Assembly (NCBI GenBank): GCA_030765525.1
Contig: JAVCCK010000034.1
Coordinates: 86,126 to 150,125, forward strand
DNA: 64,000 nt
Reading direction: 5' to 3'
From: Candidatus Lernaella stagnicola
GTDB lineage: Bacteria > Lernaellota > Lernaellaia > Lernaellales > Lernaellaceae
Positions 1 to 63,103 of the stretch are shown here, one piece after another. Within the stretch, counting starts at the first letter, position 1. Each line of letters begins with the position of its first letter. Both the position numbers and the translations under genes were made by a program. Below the pieces are notes generated by a model, which saw nothing but the letters and a program-made list of their open reading frames with translations, was not told where the DNA came from and searched no databases.

Positions 1-986
1 GTTCGCTTCGCGGATATCGGCCACGGTGATGTCTTTGTTGAGTCGCGCGAGGGTGGAATCGTCACCGCTCTCGGCCCCGACGGTCATCTCGCGGAAACCA
101 TTCTCGAAAAGGAAATCCAAGAACTCCTCTTGCCAATGGCGGGCGATGTAATCGGCCCGGCACTCGCCGCGAATCGTGACGCGCAACCCTTTGGCGCGTA
201 GGCCGTCGGCAATACCTTCGACGCGCGCGCGGTCGACATAGAAATTGTCGTCCTTGATCAAAATACCCTGAATTCCGAATTGCTTGGTGATCGTCTCGAT
301 ATGCTCTACGACGGCGTCGGCAGGTTGCGCGTGCCAGCGGCGGCCGCCGTAGGGCAGGTTGTAACAATAGGCGCACGCGTTGGGGCAGCCGCGGCTGGTC
401 GTGATCGCCAAGTCCCGCAGGCCGAGGGTTTGGGTCGTGACGTAATCATCCACGTTGACCGCGTCGTAGTCGGGAATCAAAACCTCAGACAAATCGGTGA
501 TGCGCGGGGCGTCGGGCGTGCTTTTCACTTCCTCACCGTCGACCCACGTTAAACCCGGAACGTGCGTCCAATCGCCGCCGTCGACCAGCGCCGTGGCCAA
601 CGCCGCAACGGTCTGTTCGCCGTCACCGCGCACTACGAGGTCGACCAAAGGATGCCGGGCGCTTTGCTCGGGCACGAGCGACACGTGAATGCCGCCCCAC
701 ACAATCGGCGTGTCCGGGGTTGTCCGGCGCACGATTTGCGCGGCCCGCAAGCCCCAGTCAATTTGCGCCCCGGTCATTGCGCTGATACCCACGAAAAGCG
801 CTTCGGGAGCCGCTTCGCGCAGGTTGCGCTTCCATTGCGGATCGATGCGTTGGTCGATGATCACGGGGTCGAATCCGGCGCGGCGTAAGGGGCGCACGAG
901 GTACAACACGGCCAGCGGCAACAGCGATGTGACGTTTTTGATGTCCCAACCGGTGCGGGTATAAACCAAGACGATGCGGCGCTTCA
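1..986 (-). CDS. B12-binding domain radical SAM protein (start codon at 986; C-terminal part runs off window edge)
   Basis: Reverse-complement translation from ATG (rc of cat at 984-986) gives MKRRIVLVYTRTGWDIKNVTSLLPLAVLYLVRPLRRAGFDPVIIDQ... (B12-binding fold) followed by TSRGCPNACAYCYN, a CxxxCxxC radical SAM motif. Open to position 1. Not in ORF track because incomplete. Confidence 0.8.
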
Positions 987-29415: not shown

Positions 29416-29418
29416 ACG

Positions 29419-31743: not shown

Positions 31744-31745
31744 TC

Positions 31746-34419: not shown

Positions 34420-35435
34420 AACGGGTGACGGTTGCCGTACTCGCTTACAACGAAGAGGCCAATTTGCCGGACCTGCTCGGCAGCTTGGCGGCGCAAACCT
34501 TACCGCAAGACCAATTCGATATTCTTATCGTCGATAACGGCAGTTCCGACCGCACGCGCGAGATCGCCGAACAGTGGCAAAGCCCCTTGAACAACCTGCG
34601 CGTGGTCGTTCAACCCGTACCGGGCATCGCCGTTTCCCGCAATTGCGCGCTGGCGGAAGCGACCACGGCGTTGATTGCGTTCACCGACGCCGATGTCATT
34701 TGTCCGCCCGGTTGGCTGCAAACGCTGGTCGAGGGTTTCGATCGGCACCACGCACGCGACGAGCATGTTGTGGCCGTGGGTGGCGGCAACACGCCCGTGT
34801 CGGGGCAGGGCGCTTTTCTCACGGCGATCGGCATCACGCTAAATAGTTTCTGGGGCAGTCACGGCAGCGTGCAGGGCATGATCTACACCGACGATCGGGA
34901 CGTGGAGCACATTCCGACGCTCAATATTTGCTACGACCGGGAGCGGGTGCGCGCCGCGGGCGGGTTTGACGAAGATTTCCGCATGGTCAGCGAAGATCCG
35001 GAACTCAATCACCGGCTGACGCGCCGCCACGGGTACAAAATCGTTTTTCTCGCCGGGGCCGAGGTGGAGCACAAAATGCGGCCGGACCTGAAAAGTTGGT
35101 GGCGCAACGTGTACATGTACGGTCGCGGGCGCACGCAGATCATCAAGAAGCACCCCGATCATCTCCAGTGGAAGTACATGGTGCCGCCGGTATTGCTGGC
35201 GGTCTTGGCGTTGATCCCACTGGGATTGGTGCATCCGCTATTTTGGCTGCCGGCCGTGTATTGGATTGCGCCGCTGCCCATCGCCGCGTACTTGTGCCTG
35301 CGCGCCGGGAAACCCACGTTGACGCCGCTGGCCTACCTCATTTTGGTCGGCAATCCCGTTTTCTACGGATTGGGCATGATCCACGGCCTGTGGTTTCGCT
35401 ACGAACCCGTTAGCCCGCGCTGCGTTGACCCATAA
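34416..35435 (+). CDS. family 2 glycosyltransferase
   Basis: MKRVTVAVLAYNEEANLPDLL...ILIVDNGSSDRT...AFTDADVICPPGWL (DxD-like), with two C-terminal TM helices. The ATG overlaps the TGA of the upstream rSAM gene (ATGA). Confidence 0.8.
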   Translation: MKRVTVAVLAYNEEANLPDLLGSLAAQTLPQDQFDILIVDNGSSDRTREIAEQWQSPLNNLRVVVQPVPGIAVSRNCALAEATTALIAFTDADVICPPGWLQTLVEGFDRHHARDEHVVAVGGGNTPVSGQGAFLTAIGITLNSFWGSHGSVQGMIYTDDRDVEHIPTLNICYDRERVRAAGGFDEDFRMVSEDPELNHRLTRRHGYKIVFLAGAEVEHKMRPDLKSWWRNVYMYGRGRTQIIKKHPDHLQWKYMVPPVLLAVLALIPLGLVHPLFWLPAVYWIAPLPIAAYLCLRAGKPTLTPLAYLILVGNPVFYGLGMIHGLWFRYEPVSPRCVDP

Positions 35436-36124: not shown

Positions 36125-39100
36125 CTAAACCTTTGATAATTCGCGGGATTCCTGTGATTGAAGGCGTTTACGCAATTCTTCGGTCAATCGTCCGATTCGT
36201 TCGTGGGCGCCGCGATTGTGGCCGAGATTGTCGCAGGCTTGGTAGCAGCCGATGACCGAAAAGTACGGATCCGATTTGGGTGTCGTCAGGGCTTTTCGGC
36301 GAAATTCCCGATAGGTCTCGCCGGTCCAAATCGTGCGGAAGTCGGCCTCGTGCAGGTTGCCCATGGGCAGGTCGTCGGCTTTGCAGCACGGAATGACCGA
36401 GCCGTCGGTTTTCACGCGGGCGTAGGTCCAGCCGATGGAGCAGGGGATTTTGTCCACCATTTCCGCGTCGTACCCCGAGCCTTCACCGGCCTGGATGCGT
36501 CGCAGGAACACGCCGTAACCGAGGAAGCTCAGGAATTCCACTTTGATCGCATAGCGCTCTTTGTCGATGGCGCACTGCGGATTATCGGGGCAGCGTTCGC
36601 ACTCGTGACGCGGATAGTAAAAAATGAGCGCGTTTTCCACGACGTTGTCTTCTTCGATTTCCAGCCGCCATTCCTTGCGGTGACACAAGACGTCGAATCG
36701 CGTGATGTCGTCGAGTTCGTAGCGGAAGCCGCCGGGCAGCAGGCTGCGCTTGACGAAGCGCGCGAATTCCAGCCCCTCGCCGTCGGCGTCCTGTCGCTTA
36801 GCACCGCGCGTGGGGTCGAGTTCGAGGTAGTCTTCGCGCTTGGGCAGATCGTTGAGCTGCCGCACGATTTCGGCGCGATCGGCCTCGGTCAGCGCCAGCG
36901 AATCGGTGTAGCCGGGCACGATGTCGATGGGCGTGAACTCGACGTACTCGGCCAGCGATTCAACGGCGAAGGAGACCATGTTCGCCACGTCATGGGCGTT
37001 CGTGTGACAGACGACGTGGTAGACCTTCACTTGCGGTTGGAAGCTATTGCGCTCGGCTTTGAGCCGGTGCAAGAGCTGGAGAGACTCCATGATTCGGCGC
37101 AGCGTCTTCGGCTGCTGATTCGGATGCACGGCGGCGTACACTTCGGGCGATCCCGCCCACACGCTCACCGTCAGGTGGTCGACGCCCGCCTCGACCAGGC
37201 CTTCGCAAACTTTTTCCGTCAGCAACGTGCCGTTGGTGATGACGGTGCATTCCAGGCCGCGCGCTTTGACTCGGCGGATGATCTCCATGGCATCGGTGTG
37301 GCAAAGCGGGTCGCCCGCGCCGGAAAGTTGCACGTGTTTGGCGCCCAATTCGGCCGCGTCGTCGATCAATCGCAGCACCAATTCGGTGGGTAGGTGTTGC
37401 TGTTTTTCCTCGCCGGTCATTCGCCGTTCGGCGAGCAGTGGCGAGTGGTTCCAGCAGCCGATGCAATCCAGGTTGCAGAAGTTGGTCAGGTCGATCTCGA
37501 AAATTTCGGGCCCGGCCAAGACTTCCTCGCCGTCCAGAATGCCTGCCAGGGCGAGGTTGTCTTCCACAAACGCCTGCGCCTCTTGGGCGGTAAGCGCGGC
37601 TTCCTCGACGGGCGCTTCAATTTCCGGCGCCGCCTCATCTTTAACCGGTTCCGGCATGATATAGCTGCAGCCCAGGGGGCCGGCGCGGTCACCCGCCTCG
37701 GGAATGTCGGTCTTGAACGAACGCAGGTCGTTGATCTCGTCGATCAGGATTTTCATGCGCTCTTCCATCGACAGTTCGGGGCGAAACTTCTCGACGACAC
37801 TCGCTTGCTTGCCTTCGGTGAGATTGGTCTCCCGCACTTCGACGTCCAACTCTTCGCAAAGCCGCAGCAGGGCGCGGATGCGGGCGTTGCGCACCGCCGG
37901 CGTGTTGGCACCGTCCAGGGACTCCCACAAGTAGTGATAATCCGTCTCCGGCAGGTGGATGCCGAACCGTTCCGGGTACACGTGCAAAGCCGTGCCGGTG
38001 ATCACGTGCATCGAGTTGATGCTCTTGATCTGGCCGATCCACGCCGCATTCTCGCGGATGAAATCGAGCGTCATCTGGAAATCATCGGCGGTCTCGCCCG
38101 GGAAACCCACGATGATGAACAAGCAGGTTTTGATGCCCGCCTCATGGCAGTCGCGGATGACGCGGCGGGCTTGCTCGACTTCGAAAAAGCGCAGTTTTCC
38201 CATGCGCTTGAGCACCGTGGGCGAGCCCGATTCGACGCCCCACTGCATTTCGTAGCAGCCCGCGGCCGCCATTTTATCCAGCAACTGCCTAGTCATGCCG
38301 GGCAGGGGGATGGCTTCGCCGTTCCAGCGGAATTCCAGCCCGGCGTCGATGATCCGGTCACAGAGTTCTTCGAGAATCACCACGTCACCGTTGAGCAGGT
38401 TGTCGGCGATCGTGAAATTGCGAAAGCCGTGCGTCTCCACATGACGGCGCAGTTCGCCGAATATGTGCTTGGCGCTGCGCATGCGAAAATCGCCGCTGAT
38501 CTGTTTGCCTTTGCAGTAGGTGCAGTTGGCGATGCAGCCGCGGCTCCATTCAAGGATCAGCGAATCGCCGGGGTACTGCTCGATGTCGAACTCGTCGTAA
38601 GTGGGCGGCGCGAGCGTGTCCAGGTCCATGATGGGGGCGCGCGGTGTGAAGCGGCATTCGCCTTGTTCGTCGAGAATCATCAGGCCGGGGATGTTCCGCA
38701 AATCCTCCCCGGCGCGCGTGCGTTCGACGATCTCCAGCAGCGTATTTTCACCTTCGCCGACCACGTAGCCGTCGATCAGGTCTCCGGCGCGGTCGATGAA
38801 AATTTGCCGGTATTCGGGCGTGAAGCACGCGGGACCGCCCAGGATGATGCGCGTGTCGCGATTGTGCTCGCGGAAACGCCGAATCACTTCCAGCGTGATG
38901 CGCTCTTTCGGGTCGACGACGCTGAAGCCGAGGATCGGCGGCGACAGGTCGACTAACTCCTCCACCGCTTGGTCAATTTGTCCCCGCAGACTGTGTTTGA
39001 CAACTTCGAAGGTCGTGTCGTTCGACCAGAAGTTCTTGTTCTCCACGTGCCACAGCATGCGGTATATCTCGTGGACGCCGTTGTAGAACTCGATGTTGAA

Positions 39101-42091
39101 ATCGCGCATCGCAGTGTGATAACCGCGCGCCCGCAGGAAGCTCGACAAATACGCCAGCCCCACCGGTGGGTTTTCGTAGCCCCAGGGGGGCAAGGTCACA
39201 AGCACGACATCCGGCGCCGGAGTGATTTTGCGCAGCAGGCGGTCGCGAATCTGTGTCTCGATTTTTCGAAACTCATGCCCCGGAGGCACGAAGAAATCGT
39301 AGTTGAATTTGACGTCCAGGCCCGCGACCCAAATCGCCATTTCCATCATGCGTTTTCGCCGCCAAGACGGATTGTTGTACGCCTTGTACGACCACGACTG
39401 GAAGTGCTTGCCCGGCGGCAGCAGAACGCCGTACGTGACGCAATCGCGCTCGAGCGCGCTGCCGGGCAGGATGTAGCAGGGCGTGACCTCGTCCACGTAG
39501 TCAATCGTGTCTTGAGCGTCATGCACCGCTTTGACCGTGGCGAGAAAATCCCGTTCGGTTTCGCCCGGGAAACCAACGAGCAGATTGACGTGCGTTTCGA
39601 TGCCCGCCGCGTGTGCCTGCCGCAGGTTATCTAGCGCGACTTGCCCGGTGTAACCCTTGTTCATGTGCGCCAAGAGTTCGTCGGAGAAACTTTCGACGCC
39701 GAAGCGTATCTTTGCGCAGCCGCCACGGGCCAACGTTTCGAAGAACGCCGCGTCCATCTCGACTCGCGGCGCCATGCGGCAGGTCCACCGGAAGGGCCGC
39801 CCGCTGTGGGCGATGCGTTCGGCCAGTTCGCGCAAAGCGTCGAGGTCGCCGTTGGCGATCAGGTCGGTGAAGTGAAACGTGAATACTTCCCACGTGTCGT
39901 GGTGGTCGCACATTTCCGCGAATACCGACGCCGCGCTGCGTGTGCGAAAACTTCCCTCCGCCGGTTGCTCGGCGCAAAACGCGCACCGGAAGCGGCAGCC
40001 GCGGCTCATGCGGATGGGCAACACCGGGCTTTCATAACGGTCCGGGCGAAATTCGCGGAAAGTCGGGTAGCCGATCACGTCCAGGTTGCGCAGTGGTTCG
40101 CGGGGCAAGAACTCGGGTTCGCCGTCCGGCCCCACCCAGCGTGCTCCGCGCAGAAACGCATTGCCGTCGCCGCGCCGATGCCGGCGAATGATTTCCACCA
40201 GCGTTCCTTCCGGCTGACCGATCAGCGCCAAGTCGCAAATGGCTTCGGGGAACAAGTCGCGCTCGGCGTCGATGCGTGTGGGGTCACCGCCGATGATCAG
40301 TTTGCGCGCCGGGTCGCGTTCGCGGATGGCCGTCATCACATCGCGAGTGACCAGCAAGTTGCCGCGCACGAGGTGGAAGTAAACGAGGTCCCCGGACGCC
40401 GCCAGGATTTGTTCGGCGAGCTTGGCGGGCGACAGGTCCAGTTTTTTGCGGAACGCCTCGTACGCGATGGGGTTCGCCCATTGATCGTGGCGCGGTAACT
40501 CCCACAGCTTTCGATCTTCCTCCGTGGCCCGCAGGTATTCCTGAATCGACAAATCCAGAGCGAAGGCTTTGAGACTGCGCCCGGCGAGGTAGGACGCAAT
40601 GGCCGCCAGTTCCAGCGGCGGGTGCGAGACGTCGAAGGGTGGGCACAGCACGAGCAGTAAGTCGTGGTCTTCGCCCGCCAGATGACTTGCCTCGTCGACA
40701 AAGCCGAGGTTGGTTTGCCGCACCGGTAAGCCGAGTCGATCCAACGCCGCTTTGACCCGCGTGAGGCGCTCGTGCCGCACTTGCGGCGTGTTGCCGTCCT
40801 GACCGATCCACGCAACTTCAAACCAGTCTGGGTCCACCGGCGGCAGAATGCCGTACTTCTCCGGCTTCTCCGCCAACACCGAATACTCGAGGATGTTGCA
40901 GGAATTGAGCACGGCGACTTCGTCGATCCACTCCGTGTTTGCTTCGACCCAAGCGATTGTTGCGTCCAAATGCGCTTCGGTCTCGCCCGGAAAACCGACG
41001 ACGAAATTGACCCAGGTCGTGATGCCCGCATCCTTGACCGCGCGCAACGTGTTCGTCGCGGCCTGGGCGGTCGTGCCTTTGTTCATCCATCGCAGCACAT
41101 CATTGCTGCCCGACTCGACACCCAGCGCCAACGTGTGACAGCCCGCGCGGCGCATCGCCCGGAGCGCTTCGGGTGTGAGTTTGTCGCTGATCGCCGCGTT
41201 AGCGTTCCAGCGAATGTCCAGACCGGCGTCTTCGAGCATCCCGCACAGGCTCACCACGTCGTCCACGATTTGCGTGATCTGCAGGTCGACGACCATGAAG
41301 TCGCGTTTGTCGAGTGTTTCGACGTGGTGCTGAATCTCGGCAAAAACATTTTCGGCCGACCGGCGGCGGAAACGCCCCATCAACACGCGGTCGTTGCACA
41401 GCGTGCAGCCCTTGGTGCAACCGCGGCTCATGGCCAGCGGCAGGTTGGGCGTCGCGTAGAGGGACAGGTCAAAATCGCTGAAATCGGGGAAGGGAAAATC
41501 GTCCAAGGTTTTGGCGACCGGCCGGTCGACACAAGGGCCGCCGGGCAACGCCACGCCCGCGATGTCTTCCGGCACCTCGCCGGCCACCAAGGCGCGGGCC
41601 GCTTCCACGACCGCCACTTCGCCTTCGCCGACGACAAAGGCGTCGACCAAGGCTTTCGGGAACGCGTTGCGGCTCGCTTCGCTGAACGCGCCGAGACCGC
41701 CGACGAGAATCTTGATGCCCGGCCGCCGCGCCCGCAAGCGCCGCATCAACTCGATGGTCACCGCGCGGTTGTCGCTGTGCACCGAGAAACCGGCCACCGC
41801 CGCGCCGCTTTCATCGATCTCGCGAGCCATGCGGTCAAAGGCGTCGCCGAATGCGGCGATCGTGCTGGGCACCCGGCTCTCCCAAACCCACGCGGCCTTG
41901 TGGGCCGGATCCCAAAGATGCCCCTGGCTCGCCTCAAACTCGCGATATAGCTCGATATTGAAATCACGCGCGCATACCGAAAAATCAGCGCGGCGCAATG
42001 CGGCGGTCACGCAGGCCAAACCCAGCGGCGGGCCCTCGGGCCCGAAGGGAGGCAAGATCGCTAAAAACATATCCGGTGCAGCTTTTACCAT
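36125..42091 (-). CDS. giant multi-domain radical SAM protein: three tandem B12-binding/radical-SAM modules + C-terminal SPASM/twitch-type radical SAM domain (~1990 aa)
   Basis: Continuous ORF with no stops. Module 1 is ILPPFGPEGPPLGLACV...AMSRGCTKGCTLCNDRVLMGRFRRRSAENVFAEI. Module 2 is LVLCPPFDVSHPPLELAAI...RMSRGCRFRCAFCAEQPAEGSFRTRSAASVFAEM. Module 3 is VLVTLPPWGYENPPVGLAYL...EWSRGCIANCTYCKGKQISGDFRMRSAKHIFGEL. The fourth domain is IDLTNFCNLDCIGCWNH...GAGDPL... plus a C-terminal Cys cluster (CERCPDNPQC, CSIGW, IPCC, GCYQAC). The start is assigned to Met (MVKAAPDMFLAILPP) just before module 1. The upstream in-frame 116 codons of ORF-track ORF 36125..42439 are low-complexity and run into the tRNA. 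Confidence 0.8.
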   Translation of the reverse strand: MVKAAPDMFLAILPPFGPEGPPLGLACVTAALRRADFSVCARDFNIELYREFEASQGHLWDPAHKAAWVWESRVPSTIAAFGDAFDRMAREIDESGAAVAGFSVHSDNRAVTIELMRRLRARRPGIKILVGGLGAFSEASRNAFPKALVDAFVVGEGEVAVVEAARALVAGEVPEDIAGVALPGGPCVDRPVAKTLDDFPFPDFSDFDLSLYATPNLPLAMSRGCTKGCTLCNDRVLMGRFRRRSAENVFAEIQHHVETLDKRDFMVVDLQITQIVDDVVSLCGMLEDAGLDIRWNANAAISDKLTPEALRAMRRAGCHTLALGVESGSNDVLRWMNKGTTAQAATNTLRAVKDAGITTWVNFVVGFPGETEAHLDATIAWVEANTEWIDEVAVLNSCNILEYSVLAEKPEKYGILPPVDPDWFEVAWIGQDGNTPQVRHERLTRVKAALDRLGLPVRQTNLGFVDEASHLAGEDHDLLLVLCPPFDVSHPPLELAAIASYLAGRSLKAFALDLSIQEYLRATEEDRKLWELPRHDQWANPIAYEAFRKKLDLSPAKLAEQILAASGDLVYFHLVRGNLLVTRDVMTAIRERDPARKLIIGGDPTRIDAERDLFPEAICDLALIGQPEGTLVEIIRRHRRGDGNAFLRGARWVGPDGEPEFLPREPLRNLDVIGYPTFREFRPDRYESPVLPIRMSRGCRFRCAFCAEQPAEGSFRTRSAASVFAEMCDHHDTWEVFTFHFTDLIANGDLDALRELAERIAHSGRPFRWTCRMAPRVEMDAAFFETLARGGCAKIRFGVESFSDELLAHMNKGYTGQVALDNLRQAHAAGIETHVNLLVGFPGETERDFLATVKAVHDAQDTIDYVDEVTPCYILPGSALERDCVTYGVLLPPGKHFQSWSYKAYNNPSWRRKRMMEMAIWVAGLDVKFNYDFFVPPGHEFRKIETQIRDRLLRKITPAPDVVLVTLPPWGYENPPVGLAYLSSFLRARGYHTAMRDFNIEFYNGVHEIYRMLWHVENKNFWSNDTTFEVVKHSLRGQIDQAVEELVDLSPPILGFSVVDPKERITLEVIRRFREHNRDTRIILGGPACFTPEYRQIFIDRAGDLIDGYVVGEGENTLLEIVERTRAGEDLRNIPGLMILDEQGECRFTPRAPIMDLDTLAPPTYDEFDIEQYPGDSLILEWSRGCIANCTYCKGKQISGDFRMRSAKHIFGELRRHVETHGFRNFTIADNLLNGDVVILEELCDRIIDAGLEFRWNGEAIPLPGMTRQLLDKMAAAGCYEMQWGVESGSPTVLKRMGKLRFFEVEQARRVIRDCHEAGIKTCLFIIVGFPGETADDFQMTLDFIRENAAWIGQIKSINSMHVITGTALHVYPERFGIHLPETDYHYLWESLDGANTPAVRNARIRALLRLCEELDVEVRETNLTEGKQASVVEKFRPELSMEERMKILIDEINDLRSFKTDIPEAGDRAGPLGCSYIMPEPVKDEAAPEIEAPVEEAALTAQEAQAFVEDNLALAGILDGEEVLAGPEIFEIDLTNFCNLDCIGCWNHSPLLAERRMTGEEKQQHLPTELVLRLIDDAAELGAKHVQLSGAGDPLCHTDAMEIIRRVKARGLECTVITNGTLLTEKVCEGLVEAGVDHLTVSVWAGSPEVYAAVHPNQQPKTLRRIMESLQLLHRLKAERNSFQPQVKVYHVVCHTNAHDVANMVSFAVESLAEYVEFTPIDIVPGYTDSLALTEADRAEIVRQLNDLPKREDYLELDPTRGAKRQDADGEGLEFARFVKRSLLPGGFRYELDDITRFDVLCHRKEWRLEIEEDNVVENALIFYYPRHECERCPDNPQCAIDKERYAIKVEFLSFLGYGVFLRRIQAGEGSGYDAEMVDKIPCSIGWTYARVKTDGSVIPCCKADDLPMGNLHEADFRTIWTGETYREFRRKALTTPKSDPYFSVIGCYQACDNLGHNRGAHERIGRLTEELRKRLQSQESRELSKV

Positions 42092-42396
42092 CCCACCAGG
42101 ATACTTATGGCCCAACGTGCTCACAAGCGCTTTTACGGTTACAATGTGAATCGATTGTTGAGAAGATCGATCGAGGGAACCGTGGCGGAGAGTTCGCGGT
42201 CGAAATGAATGAAACGAAGTTCGAAGGGATACGTGTCGCCGAATGCCCGCGCAGCCTGCGGGCGCGGCAGCGTTGTTGGAAACCTCCAGGCCGGTGGCAC
42301 GGACGGGCGGATCGGCCGGTGGAGGGCAACAATTTATCCCTGTTTGATAGTGACGAATTGCCGGGACGGGGCTGCCGTTAAGAGAGCGTAATGCTC

Positions 42397-42424
42397 TGGA
42401 CAAGGGCGCAATCGTAAGTATAAT
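42397..42424 (+). promoter_or_regulatory. sigma70-type promoter for tRNA-Thr
   Basis: TGGACA, then a 16-nt spacer, then TATAAT, ending ~10 nt before the mature tRNA 5' end. Confidence 0.45.
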
Positions 42425-42434
42425 CATCCACCGC

Positions 42435-42507
42435 GCCACCGTAGCTCAGTTGGTAGAGCACGCGATTCGTAATCGTGAGGTCAGGAGTTCGAATCTCCTC
42501 GGTGGCT
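42435..42507 (+). tRNA. tRNA-Thr (anticodon CGU)
   Basis: GCCACCGTAGCTCAGTTGGTAGAGCACGCGATTCGTAATCGTGAGGTCAGGAGTTCGAATCTCCTCGGTGGCT. Folding gives a 7-bp acceptor stem, D-arm GCTC/GAGC, anticodon stem CGCGA/TCGTG with loop TTCGTAA (anticodon CGT), and T-arm AGGAG-TTCGAAT-CTCCT. No CCA is encoded. Confidence 0.85.
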
Positions 42508-55229: not shown

Positions 55230-55708
55230 CCTACCGCATCGGGCACGGTTACGATGTGCACCGCCTTGTTGCGGGGCGTCTTCTCATCCTCGGCGGCGTG
55301 ACGATCGACTTCGAAAAAGGATTGCTCGGTCACAGCGACGCCGACGTGCTGACCCACGCGGTAGCCGACGCGGTTCTCGGTGCCGCGGCGCTGGGCGACA
55401 TCGGCCGCCATTTTCCCGACACCGACCCAGAATACGCCGGGGCCGACAGCCTTGAACTGCTTGCGCGCTGCGTGCGTTTCGCCCGTGAACGGGGCTTCGT
55501 CGTCGCAAATGTCGACGCCACGGTGATCGCAGAGAAACCGAAGATCGCGCCCTTCGTCGAGAAGATGCGGGAGAACCTGGCACGCGTGTTGGGAGTCGGC
55601 GAGATGTGCGTCAACGTCAAGGCGACAACCGAAGAGGGGCTGGGCATAACCGGGCAGGGCGAAGCGATGGTCGCGCACGCGGTCGTCCTGTTGAAGCTGA
55701 TCGATTAG
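55226..55708 (+). CDS. ispF: 2-C-methyl-D-erythritol 2,4-cyclodiphosphate synthase
   Basis: [46 protein letters not shown]...[18 protein letters not shown] is a canonical IspF sequence. Confidence 0.9.
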
Positions 55709-57246
55709 GGAGTCGGCTCGGCCCGCCGCTCCATGACCAAAAGGCGCTCGTCGAGATAATCAAGATCGAACAGCGGCTCGGCTCGTTCGGCGATGGCGTG
55801 AAGGTTGGCGGCAAACCCCGTCGCCACCAAGTGAGTGTACTGCCCCACCATGTCCGGATCATCCAGATGCCATATGCGGCTTACGTCCGGCAGTCGTGAC
55901 GGATTGCGCACGGTCACGATGCCCGTACCGAACAGCGCCCGCAGATAGCCGCCGCCGGTGATCACCCGGTGATACGGCAGGTAGCGCAACGGATTGACCG
56001 AGTTCGGGTACGAATAGGGGTCGGCCGCCTTCTCCAAATACGACCGGTTCTCTCGAAAATGAAAATGCGAGTCGGCGAGTATCAACATCTTCGCCCGCGG
56101 TGGAACCAACTGTTCCAGCACGCGGCGCTCTTGCTGAAGAACGCCGCCCGCCTGAAACCACCATACCGCGTTCCACGCCAGCAGCGCCGCCACCGCAAGC
56201 CCCGCCAGGCGAAAACGGCGCGTCGAGAGAGTCGCGGGGCTGGATGTCGATGCGAACAACAGCAGAACCGCCACGAAGATCAGCCGCTGTCCCGGCCGCA
56301 GCAGTTCGTAAATACGGGTGGGCGTCAGCAGGCCGATGATAATCAGGGCGACGGCGAGCACGATCACTGGATTGCGGCGGTCGAAGCGGCCCCGCACGGC
56401 AGACACCACGATGAACGCGCCGACGGCCAGGATTGCTGCGGCGTTGATCGCCGTGTTGATCCAAGCCGCCCAGGTCGGCGTCAACGGGTAGTAACTCGAC
56501 GCAATCGCCCACGGGCCGACCTTGTACCACGTGTAGTAAAGGGGATTGTGAAAGGCGTAGTGAAACCAGAACTCGCCCGCTCGTTGCGAAACGTACCACG
56601 CCAAACACGCCAAAGACGGCGCAAAGGCCGTGCCGGTCACCAGCAGCCGACGCCCCCGTTGCTTGCCGAAGCACGCGAAAATCAGCACGGCCAAACCGGC
56701 GACCGCAAAAGTCAGGAAGTGCGACAGGTAAACCAGAAACACGAGTGCCGCGAGAATCAGCCAGCGCCCGACCGACCACTTGTCCTCAACGCGACGCAGG
56801 AAACCGAGCACCAGGAAGAGCAGTGCCAAGCCGATCGTGAAATTGAAGAAACCCATCAAGAAAAAATGGTTGGCCGCGTACACGACCGCCGCCAGTTCAG
56901 CCAGCGGGCGCTCCCGGCCTTCGGCGCGTGCGAAATAGGAAAACGCCGTCACGAACAAGATCAAATACAGCGCGTAGGCCAGCGCCGCCGCGGTGAATAC
57001 CGGCGCCAGCTTCGTCAAACCGGCGATCACCAGGGTCCCGAGCAGGTTCGGGATGGGCTGCAGGTTGACCACAAAATTGTCCGCCCACGGCTGACTTCCG
57101 GCGTCGGCGATGATCTGCGCCTGCAGCACCCAGTCCATTTGATCCTGCAGGGGCGCCACGCGCACGAGTAACGGCCACGTTGCCAAAAACAACGTCAGCG
57201 CCGCCAACGTGATGTAACGCTCGCGTTTCCGGTGTGCCTCGTTCAT
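55705..57246 (-). CDS. polytopic membrane protein, hypothetical (possible glycosyl/arabinosyl-transferase-like)
   Basis: ~10 predicted TM helices followed by a ~150-aa soluble C-terminal domain. Start assigned to [11 protein letters not shown]. Confidence 0.55.
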
Positions 57247-57356
57247 GGGCCCCTGCTTAGCGCGTTTGCCGCCAAAAGAAAAGACGAGCCGCAAAAACTT
57301 GCGCTATCGCGGGGGCTTGCGGTAGGATGACGGCAACTATCCGCGGGGGAGGTCGT

Positions 57357-58046
57357 ATGCGGCGTACATTGCGCCTTGTCGGAATCGCGTTGATCGTGTT
57401 GTGTTGGGTCGGCGCGGCGCAGGCCGCCGAGAAGAAAATCGGCCTGGGCCTCAAGCTCGGCTACCACAACTTTGTGCGCTACAACCCCACCGACGACCCC
57501 GATGGCGACGGCGTGCTCGAAGATGGTGAGATCGACCAATCGATCGACGCCGGTGCGTTCGACGGCTTTGCTGTCGAAGGTGATTTTGAGTATCGCTTCC
57601 ACCCGAATTTCGTACTCGGCGGCGGAGTCCAGTGGTACGGGGCCAATGTGATCGTCGACGGCGTCACCGACGAAAACCGCGTCAAGGGCGACATCGCACT
57701 TTCGATCACGGCCCTGACGATTACGCCCAAGATCGTTCTGCCGATCAAATTCGTGAACCTGTATACCGGCGGCGGCTTGGGGCTGTACTGGCGGGTGTTG
57801 GGCTCCAGCTATGAATACACCGACCGCTTCGGCAACGACACCTCCGAATCCAACGCCGACAGCCAGGGCACGCTCGGCTACCACGCGATGGTCGGCGCCG
57901 AATTCTTCGTACTCAATTGGATCGGTATCGTCCTGGAAGATCGCTTCGCTTTCGTGCACTTCAAGGGGCAGGACCCCAAAACCGACCTGGACGACAACGA
58001 CGCCGGCGGCAATTCGGTCTTTCTCGGTACGCGCTTCCATTTCTAA
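57357..58046 (+). CDS. outer-membrane beta-barrel protein (OmpW/OmpA-like barrel domain)
   Basis: Signal peptide MRRTLRLVGIALIVLCWVGAAQA. Alternating amphipathic beta-strands. C-terminal aromatic residue (…GTRFHF). Confidence 0.6.
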   Translation: MRRTLRLVGIALIVLCWVGAAQAAEKKIGLGLKLGYHNFVRYNPTDDPDGDGVLEDGEIDQSIDAGAFDGFAVEGDFEYRFHPNFVLGGGVQWYGANVIVDGVTDENRVKGDIALSITALTITPKIVLPIKFVNLYTGGGLGLYWRVLGSSYEYTDRFGNDTSESNADSQGTLGYHAMVGAEFFVLNWIGIVLEDRFAFVHFKGQDPKTDLDDNDAGGNSVFLGTRFHF

Positions 58047-58120
58047 GGCTCCGGCTTGTCCGCCGCGCGGCGGGTCGTTACCGTAGCAACCTCATCGTAT
58101 CTATACCGGAGGAAAGCCAC

Positions 58121-59878
58121 GTGCGAGTTGTGTTTCACTGGGTCGACGAACGATCCGGCCGTTCCCTGCGGCATCCGTTGACGTTCGCGTACATGGCGGC
58201 GTTTCTCGAGTACCTCGACTTCGATGCGCAGTGTTCCTACGAGCCGGACGTGGAAGGGCTGTTGGCCGTCAACCCCGATGTCGTCTGCATATTGTGCAAT
58301 TCGTTTCACTACGCCCGCGCCGTCGAGGCTGCGCGCGAGATCAAGCAACGTCGCCGCGCCAAGTTCGTGCTTTGCGGCCCGCACATATCCAACCGGCCCG
58401 AAAGCCTCGATCCGATTTTCGACGTCGGATTGGTCGGCGAACCGGAAGATTCCCTCCACCATGTGCTCAACGTGTTGAAATCAACCGGCGATCTGTCCCC
58501 CGAGGACCTGCGCGACGTGCCCGGTGTCGTTTTTCTCGAACACCGCACGCCGGTCGTCACCGATCCGCGCGAACTGATCGACCTGGAAATGGCGATGCCG
58601 GTGCCCCGCCGCGACATTCTGCCGCGCTCGCCGTTCCCCGCCGTCGTGGGCGGACGGGGGTCGCCTTTCGAGGACGGCATTCTGGGCGGCTACGTGAACT
58701 GGGGGCGCTACCGAGCCTTCACGAACGGTGTCATCGCGCACGAAATCGAGGAACTGGCTGCGGAAAAAAACGCCGCCATATTACTCGACGACCCTTGGCT
58801 CACCGCCGACGCGTTGCGGCTGGTCGATCTGGCCGACCTACTCGAAGACAAAGAGGTCCTTGGAACCGTCCAGTTTGAAGCGCACGCCCGCGCCGCCTGG
58901 GTTACCGATGAAGTGGGCGAGTTTTGGGTGCGCCTCAACGTCACGCGGGTCGTGCTGGATATGATCGGCGATCTTCGCGATCCTGACGATTTGTACGGTG
59001 CGCGCGTCGATCTGGAAACGCTCGAGAACGCCATCGAAGTGTGCGAGCGTTATGAAGCGGCGGTTCACCTGTTTGCCCATGTCGGCGCGCCCGGCGACGA
59101 CATCGAACGGATTCGCGACTTGTTTGCTTTTCTCACCGAGAAGATTGCCGGCGGCATCCTCGCCTCGGCCCGCGTGGGTTGGCTGCCGCCGCTGCCGGGA
59201 ACGCGCTTTTGGGACGCCGGTGTCGAATCGGGCGTGGTGCGCGAGCCCCAAACCGACTGGGTGGCGTTCGCCCGACTCGCCGACGAACCCAGCCTGGAAC
59301 CGAAACTCGCGCCGCACGTGCCGCGCATCAACCTATGGCGCAAGCACCTGCAGCGTCTCGAAAAAGCGTTCCGGCGTCCCTTGGCATTGTTCGTTCGAGA
59401 CGACGCGGACATGGATATTGAAGTCGACCCTATGGCGTTGCGCTCCATTGTTTTTGTCGTCGAAGAAGAGGGAGTCAGCGAGGTGCTCAGCGACGACGAA
59501 GTCAAAATGGTCCGCTTCTCGCTGGCGGCCTTGCGTCGCGACCTGGAAAAAAACGCTGCCGACGACGATACGGCGCTGGTGCTCTTCGCGCCCCGCCCCG
59601 AGGAAGTCACGATGGAGGACATCCGCGCTCTGCGCCTCGCGGCTTCGCTCGATGGCGTGAGCATCAGCCGGCCGTCTTCAAAACCCTTTCCGTTGCTACT
59701 GTCGGTGCGGGCCGCGCTCGAGTTCGATGTTGATACCTGGCGGGCCTGGCTGGCCGGTGATGAAGCCTCCGTGCCGCCCGCGGCGACGCCCGTGGAGTTC
59801 GCGCCTTATCTCCAGTTGCCCGCGGCCGATCTCGACCAACCCGTTCCGGTTTCGGAGAAGCCTCGCGAGGAGGAATGA
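58121..59878 (+). CDS. B12-binding/radical-SAM-like protein lacking the CxxxCxxC cluster motif (degenerate class B rSAM homolog)
   Basis: GTG start with GGAGGA RBS. The B12-binding-like fold is VRVVFHWVDERSG...DVVCILCNSFHYARAVEAAREIKQRRRAKFVLCGPH. The region homologous to the rSAM cluster loop reads AVVGGRGSPFEDGILGGYVNWGRYR (compare ..SRGCxxxCxxC..R.R in the neighbouring modules), i.e. no Cys triad. The stop overlaps the next gene's ATG. Confidence 0.55.
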   Translation: MRVVFHWVDERSGRSLRHPLTFAYMAAFLEYLDFDAQCSYEPDVEGLLAVNPDVVCILCNSFHYARAVEAAREIKQRRRAKFVLCGPHISNRPESLDPIFDVGLVGEPEDSLHHVLNVLKSTGDLSPEDLRDVPGVVFLEHRTPVVTDPRELIDLEMAMPVPRRDILPRSPFPAVVGGRGSPFEDGILGGYVNWGRYRAFTNGVIAHEIEELAAEKNAAILLDDPWLTADALRLVDLADLLEDKEVLGTVQFEAHARAAWVTDEVGEFWVRLNVTRVVLDMIGDLRDPDDLYGARVDLETLENAIEVCERYEAAVHLFAHVGAPGDDIERIRDLFAFLTEKIAGGILASARVGWLPPLPGTRFWDAGVESGVVREPQTDWVAFARLADEPSLEPKLAPHVPRINLWRKHLQRLEKAFRRPLALFVRDDADMDIEVDPMALRSIVFVVEEEGVSEVLSDDEVKMVRFSLAALRRDLEKNAADDDTALVLFAPRPEEVTMEDIRALRLAASLDGVSISRPSSKPFPLLLSVRAALEFDVDTWRAWLAGDEASVPPAATPVEFAPYLQLPAADLDQPVPVSEKPREEE

Positions 59879-61947
59879 GCCGACGTCGTAAAACCGTCTT
59901 AATTCTCTTGGCCGTTCTGGCGGCTTGGGGCTTTGTGTACGGTTTGACGCAGGACCTTGCCTTGGCGCCGTATCCACTCGCGGCCGGCGAAACGTTGGCG
60001 CTGGACACTGCGGGCGCAGCGCTGAAAATCATTCTACGGACAGCGAATCCCGAAGGCCTGCATCTGAAATGCCTCAGCAAGCAGGGCGAGGCGATCTACC
60101 GACCCGCGCGTTCGGATTATCCCCTTTTCGCGAACGATCAATACGTCACGCTGGAGGTTCTGCCCAGGGAAAGCGGGATTTTGTTTGCGCTCAACGGCGG
60201 GGCGCTGAGCAGGCGAGAGGAGCACGGCCGGCCTGAGCGATGTTATCTGACGGCCGGGCTGGCGGAGGTCGCCGTGCGCGACGTGGGGCGCGCCGCGGAT
60301 GTGCGGGACAAACGCGTGGCGATGTGGCTGCTTATGCTTGTCGTGGCGGCGGCGTGGTTTTGGATGGAGTCGCGCCTGGTCGGCCGTCTGCAAGTCGATC
60401 GCGGCCGGTGGCTGACGAGTCTCGTGCTGAGCGCGCTGGCGGTCGGGTGCTGGCTGTCCCTGGCGGGCGCATGCCTGTGGCTACCTACGCTGCATCCGTT
60501 GGCGTTGGCGCTGTTTGCGGCTTCGCGCGTCGCCTTTTGGCTGGTGGCGGGCGGGAGCTTTCGTGAACCGTCGGGCGGCACGCGGCGCTACGTACTTGGC
60601 GGCGTCGGCTTACTCGGTTTCGTATTGTGTTGCGGCGCTCTCATAGCATACGCGTCGCCACGAATTGGAATCGCGGCCTTACTGCTTACCGCGGCGTTGG
60701 GATTCGACGTGGCGTTCCAACTCGATTGGCGAAAGGGGCGGTGGCTTGCCGCGACGGCCCTGCTACTGGCTCCCTTCGCCGTCATCGCGGTGCTCTCTAC
60801 CCAGAAACCGCCGGTCGGCCCGTACGCCCTGTGGGGATTACTGCCCGCGGGCGTCGCGCTGCTCGCGGTTCCGTTGGCCGCCAACCGCGATCGGTTGGGT
60901 CATTACGGTTGGCTGCGTCTGGCTCACGCCGTTCTATTTCTATTCGTGCTCGACGGCGCGTTGCGTCTTTCCCCCGCGGCCAATTACGTAAAGCCCGCCG
61001 GTATCGGGGCGGATTACCAAACGCACGAGGACCTATTCTGGGTGCCCAAGCGGTTTTTCGGCTACGAACAAGATTCCGACGACCGCGGTGACTTTCGCGT
61101 GCCGCGGGTACGTTTCCGCGGCGATGAAGATGCGACGCGCCAAAAGCCGCAGGGCACGGCGCGTATCATCGTCACCGGCGGATCCAACGCCTGGGGCGAC
61201 GGCCAACCGACGCCGGAAACCGCTTTTTCCGCTTTGCTCGAACAAGATTTGCAGGCGAAAACCGGCCGGCAAGTTGAGGTCCTTAACGGCGGCGTCAGGG
61301 GATTTCTTGTTTTTCAAGTCATGGTGCTGACCACCGAATACCTGCTGCAGTACAACCCCGATATTTTGATCGTATACGCCGCCCGCAACGACGTCTTGGA
61401 GCACAAGGGGCTGCAAACGTATCGGGAATTGTGGCGCCGAAAACAGGCGGGCGAAACCTCCTCGGCGCCGACTATCCAGGGCGTCTTGCGTGGCAGCGCC
61501 CTTTACAATGGTCTTACGGCCCTCATTGTGCAGTGGCGCGATGGGGGATTGCGTTGGTACGAACCCGCACGATGGAAGCCCGTCAATCCGCCGGAAGATT
61601 TCGCCGCGAATCTGCGCGACATCATTCATGCGGCCAAGAGCCGCGGCTGCCGAGTGGTTCTAGCTTCGGAGTTCTTCGGCGAGCACTTCTTCTACGACAT
61701 CGAGATGCCCCGGTTGCGTGAACTCCAGCAGAACATGAAGCAGGTAGCCAAGACGGAGAAGGCGCCCTTTTTCGACGCGTGGACGCTTTTCCACGAGACC
61801 GGCAAGCCACGTTCCTATTTGATGGCGGACGACCCGGTTCACATCAACGCCGCCGGTCACGCCCTACTGGCCCGCCATTTGGCCGACTATTTGGTGAGCG
61901 ACCCGAGTACGTCTGGGGTCTTGCTGGCCGCCGAGCCGCTCAAGTAG
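59875..61947 (+). CDS. membrane-anchored SGNH/GDSL-family hydrolase (possible O-acyltransferase/esterase)
   Basis: The N-terminal ~400 aa have ≥8 TM helices. The C-terminal domain has SGNH blocks ARIIVTGGSNAWGDG (block I), VLNGGVRG (II), ILIVYAARND (III) and DPVHINAAGHALLA (V). Confidence 0.65.
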   Translation: MSRRRKTVLILLAVLAAWGFVYGLTQDLALAPYPLAAGETLALDTAGAALKIILRTANPEGLHLKCLSKQGEAIYRPARSDYPLFANDQYVTLEVLPRESGILFALNGGALSRREEHGRPERCYLTAGLAEVAVRDVGRAADVRDKRVAMWLLMLVVAAAWFWMESRLVGRLQVDRGRWLTSLVLSALAVGCWLSLAGACLWLPTLHPLALALFAASRVAFWLVAGGSFREPSGGTRRYVLGGVGLLGFVLCCGALIAYASPRIGIAALLLTAALGFDVAFQLDWRKGRWLAATALLLAPFAVIAVLSTQKPPVGPYALWGLLPAGVALLAVPLAANRDRLGHYGWLRLAHAVLFLFVLDGALRLSPAANYVKPAGIGADYQTHEDLFWVPKRFFGYEQDSDDRGDFRVPRVRFRGDEDATRQKPQGTARIIVTGGSNAWGDGQPTPETAFSALLEQDLQAKTGRQVEVLNGGVRGFLVFQVMVLTTEYLLQYNPDILIVYAARNDVLEHKGLQTYRELWRRKQAGETSSAPTIQGVLRGSALYNGLTALIVQWRDGGLRWYEPARWKPVNPPEDFAANLRDIIHAAKSRGCRVVLASEFFGEHFFYDIEMPRLRELQQNMKQVAKTEKAPFFDAWTLFHETGKPRSYLMADDPVHINAAGHALLARHLADYLVSDPSTSGVLLAAEPLK

Positions 61948-62001: not shown

Positions 62002-62232
62002 ATGGCCTTAACGCAGGCAATCGGCTACGCGGTGCAGGGCATCAAGAGCGCCGAACACCAAGTCGAAAAAGCGGCTCAAAAAATCGCCGGCTTCAGCGGC
62101 CCGGACGCCGACGTCCATCTGCCGGAGGATATCGTCAGCATAAAACTGGCCAAGGCGGCGCACCAAGCCAACGTCTCGATGTTGCGCGCTGCGGCGGAAA
62201 TGGAAAAGGAAACGATCGACATCATCGTTTAG
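62002..62232 (+). CDS. small hypothetical protein (76 aa; weak resemblance to YjfB-type putative motility proteins)
   Basis: MALTQAIGYAVQGIKSAEHQVEKAAQKIAGFSGPDADVHLPEDIVSIKLAKAAHQANVSMLRAAAEMEKETIDIIV. Followed by a clear terminator hairpin. Confidence 0.4.
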   Translation: MALTQAIGYAVQGIKSAEHQVEKAAQKIAGFSGPDADVHLPEDIVSIKLAKAAHQANVSMLRAAAEMEKETIDIIV

Positions 62233-62310: not shown

Positions 62311-62979
62311 CTAATCTAGCGCCGGACAATATTCGTGCTGATCCGTGCGGATATCGCCATACGCGTACGTGATGAAATCCTGGGTCAGGTAAATGCAGCC
62401 GTCGTCGCATTCGTAGATGCCCACGCCGACAAACTTGAAATTCCGTGCCAGGATATTGGAGCGGTGGTTGGGCTCGCATTCCGGCTCGTCCATGAAATCG
62501 ATTTCGGCTTGCGTGATCACCTGGCTCAACGACATCCCACAAGCCATGTAAATGTTCTCGCCGGCCGCGACAAAACCGAGCCCCGCCGCCTCCATACGAT
62601 CAAAGGGACTTTCGCCGTCGGGGTTCGCGTGATCGAAAAAGCCGCGTTCACACATATCGCGCGAATGGGCTTCGGCCACTGCGGCCACTGGATCGTCGTA
62701 GAATAAGGGCTGGGCGCAGTCGGATTCTTCCGGATGGGCGTAGCGATCTTCATTGAGCAATCGCGCGTGGGTGCATTCAGCCTCGGGACCGTCACAATCC
62801 ATATCGACGCTGTAGTCGATATCGCACTCTTCGCTGAATAGGCTTCCGTCGCCGCCGCCGTCGTCGTCATCGTCGTCGGTGGAGCCGAACGAATTGGGTG
62901 CTTCGGTTTCGTCACTACCGCACGCCACGAAAAAGCCCATGGCCAAAATCGCAATCACGATCAAAACATACAATCTCAT
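62311..62979 (-). CDS. CAP/SCP/PR-1-like (YkwD-type) domain lipoprotein with poly-Asp linker
   Basis: MRLYVLIVIAILAMGFFVAC (lipobox). The linker is GSTDDDDDDGGGDGS. The CAP-domain motifs are HSRDMCERGFFDHANPDG...GENIYMACGMSL...EPNHRSNILARNFKFVGVGIYECDDG. Start refined to the internal Met of ORF 62311..63051. Confidence 0.65.
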   Translation of the reverse strand: MRLYVLIVIAILAMGFFVACGSDETEAPNSFGSTDDDDDDGGGDGSLFSEECDIDYSVDMDCDGPEAECTHARLLNEDRYAHPEESDCAQPLFYDDPVAAVAEAHSRDMCERGFFDHANPDGESPFDRMEAAGLGFVAAGENIYMACGMSLSQVITQAEIDFMDEPECEPNHRSNILARNFKFVGVGIYECDDGCIYLTQDFITYAYGDIRTDQHEYCPALD

Positions 62980-63103
62980 TGGCGATCTTTTCCTTTCCAC
63001 GGTGTCTACGACCGCTGAGCTAAGTTTGCCCGGCTGATTCCCTGTTGTCAAAACAAAAATCTTTGACTTGACACTGCCGCGTTGGGCTTACACCATCGGC
63101 CCA

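Follow-up and report, generated by a model that had tools for sequence, protein, structure and literature searches.

A cysteine-less relative of cobalamin-type radical SAM enzymes encoded next to a membrane SGNH protein in an apparently reduced envelope operon of Candidatus Lernaella stagnicola

Cobalamin-type (class B) radical S-adenosylmethionine (SAM) enzymes, such as MgmA/QCMT (9ccb), TsrM (6wtf), CysS (9n1b), TokK (7kdx), OxsB (5ul4) and AprD4 (6fd2), join a B12-binding Rossmann domain to a partial TIM barrel. To our knowledge, naturally cluster-less members of the radical SAM (rSAM) superfamily that are kept as proteins have rarely been documented. Here we describe a candidate for such a protein, the product of gene A, in a 64,000-nucleotide stretch of the Candidatus Lernaella stagnicola genome (GenBank assembly GCA_030765525.1, contig JAVCCK010000034.1, positions 86,126 to 150,125 of the forward strand), which we refer to as the window. 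The stop codon of gene A overlaps the start codon of gene B, which encodes a polytopic membrane protein with a C-terminal SGNH domain (Table 1). Gene A resembles the enzymes named above in its domain plan, and it keeps H88, a GE dipeptide, R179-G180 and W194 in common with class B rSAMs. Unlike them, it has neither the CX3CX2C cluster motif nor the GGE motif, the glycines of its GG and GxS motifs are replaced, and it carries an extra C-terminal domain of ~170 residues. By descent and predicted fold gene A belongs with the class B rSAMs, while in the way it would work it is unlike anything characterised.

The hopanoid-associated B12-rSAMs HpnR and HpnJ, with other class B rSAMs that modify lipids or glycans, provide a second comparison, as cytoplasmic enzymes that act on membrane-associated substrates in an envelope context. 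The NCBIfam HpnR model aligned collinearly with gene A residues 47-365 (~320 residues, E 1e-8), but scored 34 bits against a cutoff of 650. Also unlike HpnR and HpnJ, gene A has no hopanoid genes in its operon, and the HpnJ-like gene found elsewhere in the window is 22% identical to it. Other B12-rSAM models of NCBIfam aligned to gene A as well, with every score far under the family cutoff.

The gene A product is 100% identical to MDP8224742.1 of Ca. Lernaella stagnicola, which is annotated as 'hypothetical protein P9L99_15390' and whose gene is on a contig of 356 kb. The initial annotation had read it as a cysteine-less B12-rSAM homolog, and profile searches bore this out, although the homology is weak at the level of the single sequence. 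In the Pfam scan, the B12-binding family (PF02310) aligned below its threshold to residues 18-115 (27.9 bits, cutoff 32.1, E 2e-6), a family also listed for gene A in the precomputed Pfam annotation; Radical_SAM_N2 gave a weak match (E 7e-4), and Radical_SAM (PF04055) gave none even at E<=1. Word-indexed searches with gene A, gene B or an alignment of the gene A clade returned only self-matches and one relative, P0002 (relatives of gene A are given here by P numbers and loci by L numbers), the index missing the family. A two-sequence profile built from gene A and P0002 matched TokK (E 1e-9) and CysS (E 2e-6) among PDB sequences, in an alignment that spans the B12 domain and reaches the Cys-loop region of gene A. 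When 1.84 billion representatives were searched exhaustively with the same profile (HMMER), 12,647 relatives were found at E<=1e-3, and among the matches listed CxxxCxxC was present in 147 of the 147 relatives outside the gene A clade (P0006-P0152).

Structure prediction, proposed in the initial annotation as a check of fold retention, gave a similar picture. An AlphaFold2 model of gene A built from a 101-sequence alignment had a predicted local distance difference test score (pLDDT) of 89.2 and a predicted template modelling score of 0.88, and its top Foldseek matches in the PDB were all B12-domain rSAMs (MgmA, TsrM, AprD4, CysS and OxsB; E 1e-18 to 1e-12; TM-score ~0.5 over the query). The model, the Foldseek matches and the profile search together support a partial (beta/alpha)6 TIM barrel and common ancestry with rSAMs, as far as a predicted structure allows. 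These data show that gene A is a true homolog of the class B rSAMs, and the Rossmann-plus-partial-barrel fold is predicted to have been kept.

What has not been kept is the cluster site. Comparison of alignment columns with 97 Cys+ relatives revealed that the three invariant cysteines are replaced by S181, D185 and L188 and a conserved Phe by I187. The loop, G180-SPFEDGIL-GGYVNW194, is equal in length to GCPYECRFCSSRRMW of the nearest Cys+ relative, P0004; the codons at the former Cys positions are tcg, gac and ctg, and restoration of the triad would require at least 7 substitutions and 0 indels. Neither C...C..C nor C(2-8)C..C occurs anywhere in gene A, which has 5 Cys in total. Gene A cannot ligate the rSAM cluster through the canonical Cys triad. 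The source is a metagenome-assembled genome (MAG), which would leave room for faulty sequencing or assembly, or a frameshift, as the origin of the loss; however, at least seven base changes without an indel in a loop of the same length exclude a local sequencing error, the GGE and cobalamin motifs are altered too, and the same loss is present in independent assemblies from other samples (L004/L013 and L001), one of them encoding the separately branching P0002. We give an artefact practically no weight and regard the loss as evolutionary.

The other cofactor sites are degenerate as well. At the position of the FGxES strand, column analysis placed D280 at the invariant G, a gap at the invariant E and I282 at the S, and the pLDDT of the model dips to 61-68 at residues 281-300. 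The cobalamin-contact motifs of the family, namely GxSx, a Gly-Gly pocket and Gly-Glu, have been defined from the OxsB, TsrM and TokK structures (PMC9204698). In gene A the GxS motif, in which G and S are conserved at 87% and 81% in the family, reads C56-I-L58, and the GG motif reads C85-G86, its first Gly (of GGxH) being 100% conserved in the 97 functional relatives. GEGE has become GEPE, with P108 at the invariant third-position Gly and with the GE dipeptide G106-E107 and H88 retained. Family-conserved residues that are still present include G86, H88, E107, E109, R179, G180, W194, R198, P324, P357, P359, W364 and W380, and many pocket-lining positions are also kept. Without the cluster motif, without the SAM motif and below the Pfam threshold, gene A lies outside what defines an rSAM enzyme and should be filed as a putative radical-SAM-like pseudoenzyme.

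Full-length relatives of gene A that include the C-terminal extension are few. In the profile search only P0004, P0005 and P0002 matched over the full length, and other rSAMs matched only positions 1 to ~430 of the profile. The Cys triad is lost in P0005, which is encoded at L004 and L013 in synteny with the window and is mislabelled 'radical SAM superfamily enzyme YgiQ', and in P0002, which is encoded on the 2-kb contig L001. Downstream of P0002, at L001 1866-2033, the sequence TTGTAAGAGCGCCTTTCC(A/G)(G/A)GCGCGAT occurs as two direct repeats ~50 nt apart, and no SGNH gene is present. The triad is kept in P0004/P0153, encoded in full operons at L002, L003 and L014, and in the protein of L005, whose N-terminus is cut by the contig end and whose gene is followed by a gene B homolog with a 4-nt overlap. 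P0004 and the L005 protein, which keep GRGCPYxCxFC and FGLES/LGLES, are 31-34% identical to gene A in full-length alignments that take in the C-terminal domain; P0006 (MDP8254895.1, Ca. Alcyoniella australis) is ~25% identical to gene A, in a match over ~430 residues.

The three Cys-less lineages are 33-41% identical to each other, with the open reading frame (ORF) intact in each. All three have replaced C181, C185, C188, F187 and the G-x-E-S motif, but the replacement residues differ among gene A, P0005 and P0002 (S/N/gap, D/T/L and L/S/E at the three Cys positions). In a neighbour-joining tree, which is distance-based and carries no support values, gene A grouped with P0005, and the Cys-less P0002 joined the Cys+ P0004 and L005 protein, to which it is 48-49% identical versus 33-41% to gene A and P0005. 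This placement of P0002 among Cys+ members suggests at least two independent losses, and the triad seems to have been lost at least twice in this small clade. Apparently independent losses within one small clade amount to a natural experiment that could separate a scaffold role from a catalytic one.

The pattern of replacements also bears on whether gene A might have acquired a new function, with the old barrel/Rossmann pocket used for non-radical chemistry or for binding a ligand (cobalamin or another), for example as a sensor or chaperone. The retained fold, G106-E107, H88 and the many retained pocket-lining positions would fit such a role. AprD4, a B12-domain dehydratase among the fold matches of gene A, keeps its B12-like domain without using cobalamin. 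A further precedent may be TsrM, which shows that reductive cleavage of SAM is not essential for enzymes of this family to function (PMC9204698). However, the Cys-less proteins differ from one another at every former catalytic position and share no new motif, the GG and GxS glycines have become C/F and C/A, and the GGE strand is disrupted by a low-confidence insertion, so that we consider neo-functionalisation very improbable.

The intact relatives place gene A in a recurrent operon. At L014 the gene order is OMP_b-brl (an outer membrane protein, OMP, of beta-barrel type), a B12-rSAM of 662 aa (rSAM1), PMT_2, PMT_2, PMT/PMT_2, a P0004-type rSAM (rSAM2), a transmembrane (TM) SGNH protein of 732 aa, a second SGNH protein of 689 aa, a 76-aa gene and, on the minus strand, CAP, and most junctions in the operon overlap by 4-8 nt. 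A core of rSAM1 (~660 aa), two to three PMT_2 (GT-C) genes and rSAM2 (~580-630 aa), with or without the TM-SGNH gene, was found at L014/L002/L003, L009, L010, L011/L012, L015 and L016, and the operon spans L014 1368-16064, L009 1-12172, L011 677-9176 and L015 4606-11734. L009 belongs to Ca. Alcyoniella australis, whose genus is the other one described in the Lernaellota. A second flavour of the operon (L011 and L015) has no SGNH gene; 1-4 genes further downstream these loci carry a conserved block of a small rSAM, GT4 and enolase, to which a methyltransferase is added in L015. Gene A resembles the intact rSAM2s (P0004, the L005 protein and P0006) in lying directly upstream of a TM-SGNH gene, with a 4-nt overlap, in an OMP-led operon. 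The intact rSAM2s, which are known from sequence alone, differ in that they keep GRGCPYxCxFC and FGxES and that their operons still encode rSAM1 and two to three GT-C proteins. No NCBIfam model reached its threshold for any gene of the OMP-rSAM1-GT-C-rSAM2-SGNH operon, and literature searches returned no description of the operon or of a Cys-less class B rSAM. This recurrent operon, for which no curated family exists, may carry out an as yet undescribed modification of the envelope in 'dark matter' phyla.

The window locus is syntenic with L014 downstream (gene B, the 76-aa ORF and CAP) and on either flank with L004 (GlgP, epimerase, AP_endonuc_2, IspD, IspF, a membrane protein of 529/509 aa, OMP, gene A, gene B and CAP). 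Identity to the L014 and L004 genes was 61-75% for the OMP, 34-36% for gene A and 36-39% for gene B. Where the window has the spacer between the OMP gene and gene A, the full operon carries rSAM1 and three GT-C genes. In tblastn searches with the rSAM1 and PMT proteins of L014 and L015, nothing was detected between or near the OMP gene and gene A in the window. At the same position, L004 (9081-9938) encodes a 285-aa protein that has a single TM segment, at its N-terminus, and is 31% identical to residues 483-687 of the L014 PMT1 protein (E 1e-18; profile E 3e-15), the C-terminal non-membrane part. This 285-aa protein is a remnant of PMT1 and a visible deletion scar. The short spacer without a trace of rSAM1 or PMT_2, together with the PMT1 remnant of L004, argues that the window locus is a reduced operon of the form OMP-A-B, in which rSAM1 and the GT-C genes have been deleted, the second SGNH gene lost and rSAM2 left without its cofactor sites. 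Gene A is then the degenerate ortholog of rSAM2 in an uncharacterised envelope operon.

The initial annotation had missed that the pair is a leftover of such an operon after the deletion of rSAM1 and two to three GT-C genes, and had instead treated gene A as collinear kin of the rSAM modules in the window. That kinship did not hold, as the modules lie 16-25 kb away and are only ~21-22% identical to gene A. An origin of gene A as a paralog of the window rSAMs was likewise rejected, since its identity to the 36125-42439 ORF and to the HpnJ-like gene is 21-22% and it is closer to the operon rSAM1 and rSAM2.

The catalytic motifs of gene B are complete. SGNH blocks I, II, III and V are present in gene B (GGS437N, NGGVRG, RN505D and D653PVH656) and are invariant across three aligned orthologs. 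Hydropathy indicated ~9 TM helices, arranged with the N-terminus inside as TM1, an outside loop of ~120 aa, TM2-9, a conserved linker and the SGNH domain. The positive-inside rule agrees with this arrangement (K+R of 4, 4, 3, 3 and 2 in the inside loops and of 0, 1 and 1 in the short outside loops), and the SGNH domain is probably periplasmic. Orthologs of gene B in L004, L014 and L005 are 36-39% identical to it; within L014 the ortholog is the first SGNH gene (36%) and not the second (26%). A GTDB species-genome scan with the gene B alignment gave no match, and a metagenome scan with the same alignment gave four loci, of which one (L005) carried the pair. Where the two genes do occur together, they overlap by 4 nt in all five distinct loci (the window, L004, L002/L003/L014, L005 and L009), including loci where the gene A ortholog keeps its Cys triad; the overlap is broken in the L013 variant. 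The overlap of the stop of gene A with the ATG of a polytopic SGNH protein, the co-occurrence of the pair in other genomes, the outer membrane barrel gene upstream and the cell-envelope flavour of the locus, all raised in the initial annotation, were thus confirmed, the last of them by the OMP barrel, the probably periplasmic SGNH domain and the GT-C genes of the full operon.

The analogy with OatA drawn in the same annotation fared less well. Under that proposal gene B would move an acyl group across the membrane as part of a polysaccharide or peptidoglycan O-acyltransferase module, with the dead rSAM presenting the substrate. Like the OatA-type AT3-SGNH proteins, gene B has a polytopic membrane domain followed by a C-terminal, predicted extracytoplasmic SGNH domain with complete Ser/Asp/His, and the envelope context of the OMP barrel and GT-C genes would suit such a module. 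The AT3 domain, however, has 10-11 TM helices, whereas gene B has TM1, a 120-aa outside loop and 8 further TM helices. Acyl_transf_3 (PF01757) and MBOAT gave no Pfam match in the membrane part of gene B or of four orthologs, taken as the N-terminal ~400-450 residues, even at E<=10, nor did any relevant Pfam family. The Pfam model 'SGNH fused to AT3' misses gene B, with a sub-threshold match solely in the L014 paralog B2, and the nearest solved relatives of the SGNH domain are generic GDSL esterases and acetyl-xylan esterases, with no specific likeness to the SGNH domains of OatA, PatB or Ape. Gene A is, in addition, predicted to lie across the membrane from the SGNH domain. Because the membrane domain shows no AT3 or MBOAT signal, gene B is not OatA-type, and we regard the OatA-like module as improbable. 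Gene B is an SGNH hydrolase/acyltransferase whose membrane anchor is of a new architecture. A single-sequence AlphaFold2 model of gene B had a pLDDT of 39 and was unusable for the fold of the membrane domain.

On balance we lean towards the reading that gene A is a non-catalytic partner that was retained with gene B and no longer performs radical chemistry, and that gene B is an active SGNH enzyme. The ancestral system would build or modify an envelope glycoconjugate or lipid, with the two rSAMs acting in the cytoplasm, the GT-C and SGNH proteins in the periplasm and the OMP as a partner or target. As donors, GT-C enzymes take lipid-linked sugars at the outer surface of the cytoplasmic membrane. 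In Lernaella the SGNH step alone would survive, possibly with the divergently encoded 529-aa membrane protein. Gene A may fold, stabilise or regulate gene B through the cytoplasmic loops of the latter, or deliver a membrane-associated ligand, and as the upstream cistron it would drive coupled translation of gene B. Gene B, in turn, would act as an esterase or acyltransferase on an envelope glycoconjugate or lipid at the periplasmic side. A more specific version, which we regard as doubtful, is that rSAM2 also serves the TM-SGNH protein as an obligate subunit on the cytoplasmic side, a second role that needs no cluster, and that this let radical chemistry go at least twice. If this version were true, gene A would be a genuine rSAM pseudoenzyme with a part in controlling or assembling an acyl-transfer/esterase step in the periplasm, and the parent operon would be an undescribed glycoconjugate/lipid-modification pathway in Lernaellota and other uncultivated lineages.

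Several observations weigh against a retained partner. Gene A has neither a signal peptide nor a TM segment and is predicted to be cytoplasmic, the SGNH domain is predicted to be periplasmic, and the cytoplasmic loops of gene B are short (8-16 aa). The association is not strict, as P0002 has no gene B within 167 nt of its stop and a gene B homolog without gene A was found at L006. The predicted fold of gene A is partly inherited from a multiple sequence alignment dominated by functional enzymes. The assemblies L013 and L004, which come from sister samples, agree throughout 21.8 kb apart from a 7-bp deletion in L013 (TTGACCG; L013 ~11702, L004 11702-11708), which lies in the 3' tail of the gene A homolog, frameshifts its last ~32 codons and abolishes the ATGA junction; this may be decay under way, a real variant or an assembly error. 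Finally, gene A evolves about three times faster than its neighbours at non-synonymous sites, which fits relaxed constraint. In Nei-Gojobori comparisons of the window with L004, the proportions of non-synonymous and synonymous differences (pN and pS) were 0.45 and 0.61 for gene A, 0.42 and 0.67 for gene B and 0.09-0.25 and 0.49-0.71 for the neighbours, and the apparent dN/dS ratios were ~0.55, ~0.36 and 0.09-0.28, respectively, values that are rough and semi-quantitative, with true ratios lower, since dS is near saturation (1.1-2.3). The L004/L013 pair had zero substitutions and so gave no dN/dS from near-identical strains.

Such observations are what would be expected if gene A were a decaying relic, that is, an rSAM2 left without a substrate once rSAM1 and the GT-C genes had been deleted, and now eroding. 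The ORF would then survive just because too little time has passed. In a variant of this explanation, an interrupted frame would abolish coupled translation of gene B, and selection would act on the reading frame and not on the protein. This is the main rival of a retained partner, and we hold it to be possible, though not the likelier of outcomes. Besides the high apparent dN/dS relative to the neighbours and the frameshift near the 3' end in L013, it is favoured by the clear absence of the rest of the operon, by the position of the Cys-less sequences on the longest branches of the neighbour-joining tree and by an apparently stepwise erosion of the cofactor motifs, in which the Fe-S and SAM sites went first and the cobalamin glycines followed in gene A and P0005, those of P0002 having so far been kept.

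The state of the gene itself speaks for the other side. Despite near-saturated dS, gene A keeps its 585-codon frame, its structural residues and its C-terminal domain. Some ~17 stop codons would be expected by chance in a random frame of the same GC content. It does not look like a classical pseudogene, in that its ORF and ribosome binding site (RBS) are intact and so are the L004 and L001 copies, the L013 copy being the sole frameshifted one. Retention of the frame, the RBS, the 4-nt junction and the structural residues at this divergence argues against a free-running pseudogene. Nor is speed alone a sign of decay, since gene B is nearly as fast and yet catalytically intact. Between the window and L004, amino acid identity was 36% for gene A and 39% (BLASTP) or 43% (codon alignment) for gene B, compared with 58-76% for the neighbours (BLASTP) and 85% for the partial GlgP (codon alignment), and the two genes were similarly fast in comparisons with the Cys+ locus L014 as well. 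This indicates that fast evolution belongs to the pair and not just to the Cys-less state. The second independent Cys loss with a retained ORF, in P0002, also argues for a cluster-independent value of the protein. If gene A is nevertheless just a decaying relic, the locus is a case of ordinary operon erosion, which is a more ordinary explanation than the purpose-built 'adaptor' envisaged in the initial annotation; the pseudoenzyme hypothesis stays testable.

Oxygen was also considered as a driver of the Cys loss. The Ca. L. stagnicola MAG comes from the anoxic zone and the oxic-anoxic interface of Ace Lake, Antarctica; the species has been described as facultatively anaerobic and as importing cobalamin, and A. 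australis as a strict anaerobe (PMC9324843). The intact operon is found in the strict anaerobe, yet the idea was not adopted, because the window encodes several intact rSAM enzymes.

Table 1. Coordinates of the gene A/gene B locus and its flanking features in the window.
Feature	Position	Strand	Description
529-aa polytopic membrane protein	55705..57294	-	divergent from the operon; ~10 hydrophobic segments
OMP beta-barrel gene	57327..58046	+	239 aa, signal peptide; Pfam OMP_b-brl E 3.6e-9; first operon gene
Spacer between OMP gene and gene A	58047..58120	+	74 nt; GC-rich palindrome CCGCCGCGCGGCGG and RBS GGAGGAAAG
Gene A	58121..59878	+	585 aa; Cys-less degenerate ortholog of the second cobalamin-type rSAM (rSAM2) of the operon; intact 585-codon ORF, GTG start at 58121, 6 nt 3' of the RBS
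B12-binding-like Rossmann domain	58121..58570	+	gene A residues ~1-150; Pfam residues 18-115
Former Cys loop	58655..58702	+	R179-G-S-P-F-E-D-G-I-L-G-G-Y-V-N-W194
Degenerate GGE-type SAM strand/loop	58952..59011	+	family consensus FGxES; carries a low-confidence insertion
C-terminal alpha/beta extension	59378..59830	+	gene A residues ~420-570; specific to the rSAM2 clade; pLDDT ~85-95
ATGA overlap, stop of gene A/start of gene B	59875..59878	+	GAGGAGGA upstream; translational-coupling layout
Gene B	59875..61947	+	690-aa membrane protein with C-terminal SGNH domain
SGNH/GDSL domain	61162..61884	+	Pfam Lipase_GDSL_2 (PF13472) E 7e-20, residues 435-664
Gene B catalytic blocks	GGS437 61183-61185; G473; N505 61387-61389; D653 61831-61833; H656 61840-61842	+	
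76-aa ORF after gene B	62002..62232	+	has RBS; 37% identical to the same-position L014 gene
CAP/SCP-family secreted protein	62311..63051	-	Pfam CAP E 4e-14; downstream synteny boundary

Among the flanking genes, the OMP barrel shares 75.5% identity with its L004 counterpart and 61% with that of L014/L002, all of which lie upstream of rSAM genes, and this conservation (61-75%) is far above that of the rest of the operon. Its residues ~52-78 (window 57480-57560) form an acidic DPDGDGVLEDGEIDQSID stretch, which we take to resemble thrombospondin type 3-like calcium-binding motifs. The 529-aa membrane protein is 62% identical to the L004 gene at the same position (509 aa) and matched no Pfam or NCBIfam family at threshold. 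When it was compared with the operon PMT_2 alignment by hhalign, 247 columns of the TM region aligned with 77% probability (E 2e-5), and it may be a remote GT-C-like protein. Downstream of gene B, the 76-aa ORF, which looks unannotated, matched no Pfam family, and the CAP copies of L004 and L014 are 56-58% identical to that of the window (BLASTP).

Further rSAM genes are scattered over the window. A partial B12-binding rSAM gene at 67-795 (minus strand; B12-binding E 8e-12, Radical_SAM E 4e-6) encodes a product that is 32% identical to the operon rSAM1 over 251 residues. At 36125-42439 (minus strand) lies a single 2104-aa ORF in which CxxxCxxC occurs four times, alongside four Radical_SAM stretches (E 3e-88), two B12-binding stretches and a C-terminal SPASM domain; it would be either an unusual multi-module rSAM fusion or several genes joined in a single reading frame. 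A polysaccharide export/synthesis cluster at 28381-35435 (plus strand) encodes Wza-like Poly_export/SLBB and Wzc-like GNVR/AAA_31 proteins and two GT2 genes, and within it lies the intact HpnJ-like B12-rSAM gene (32917-34419), which scored 354 bits with TIGR03471 against a cutoff of 578.

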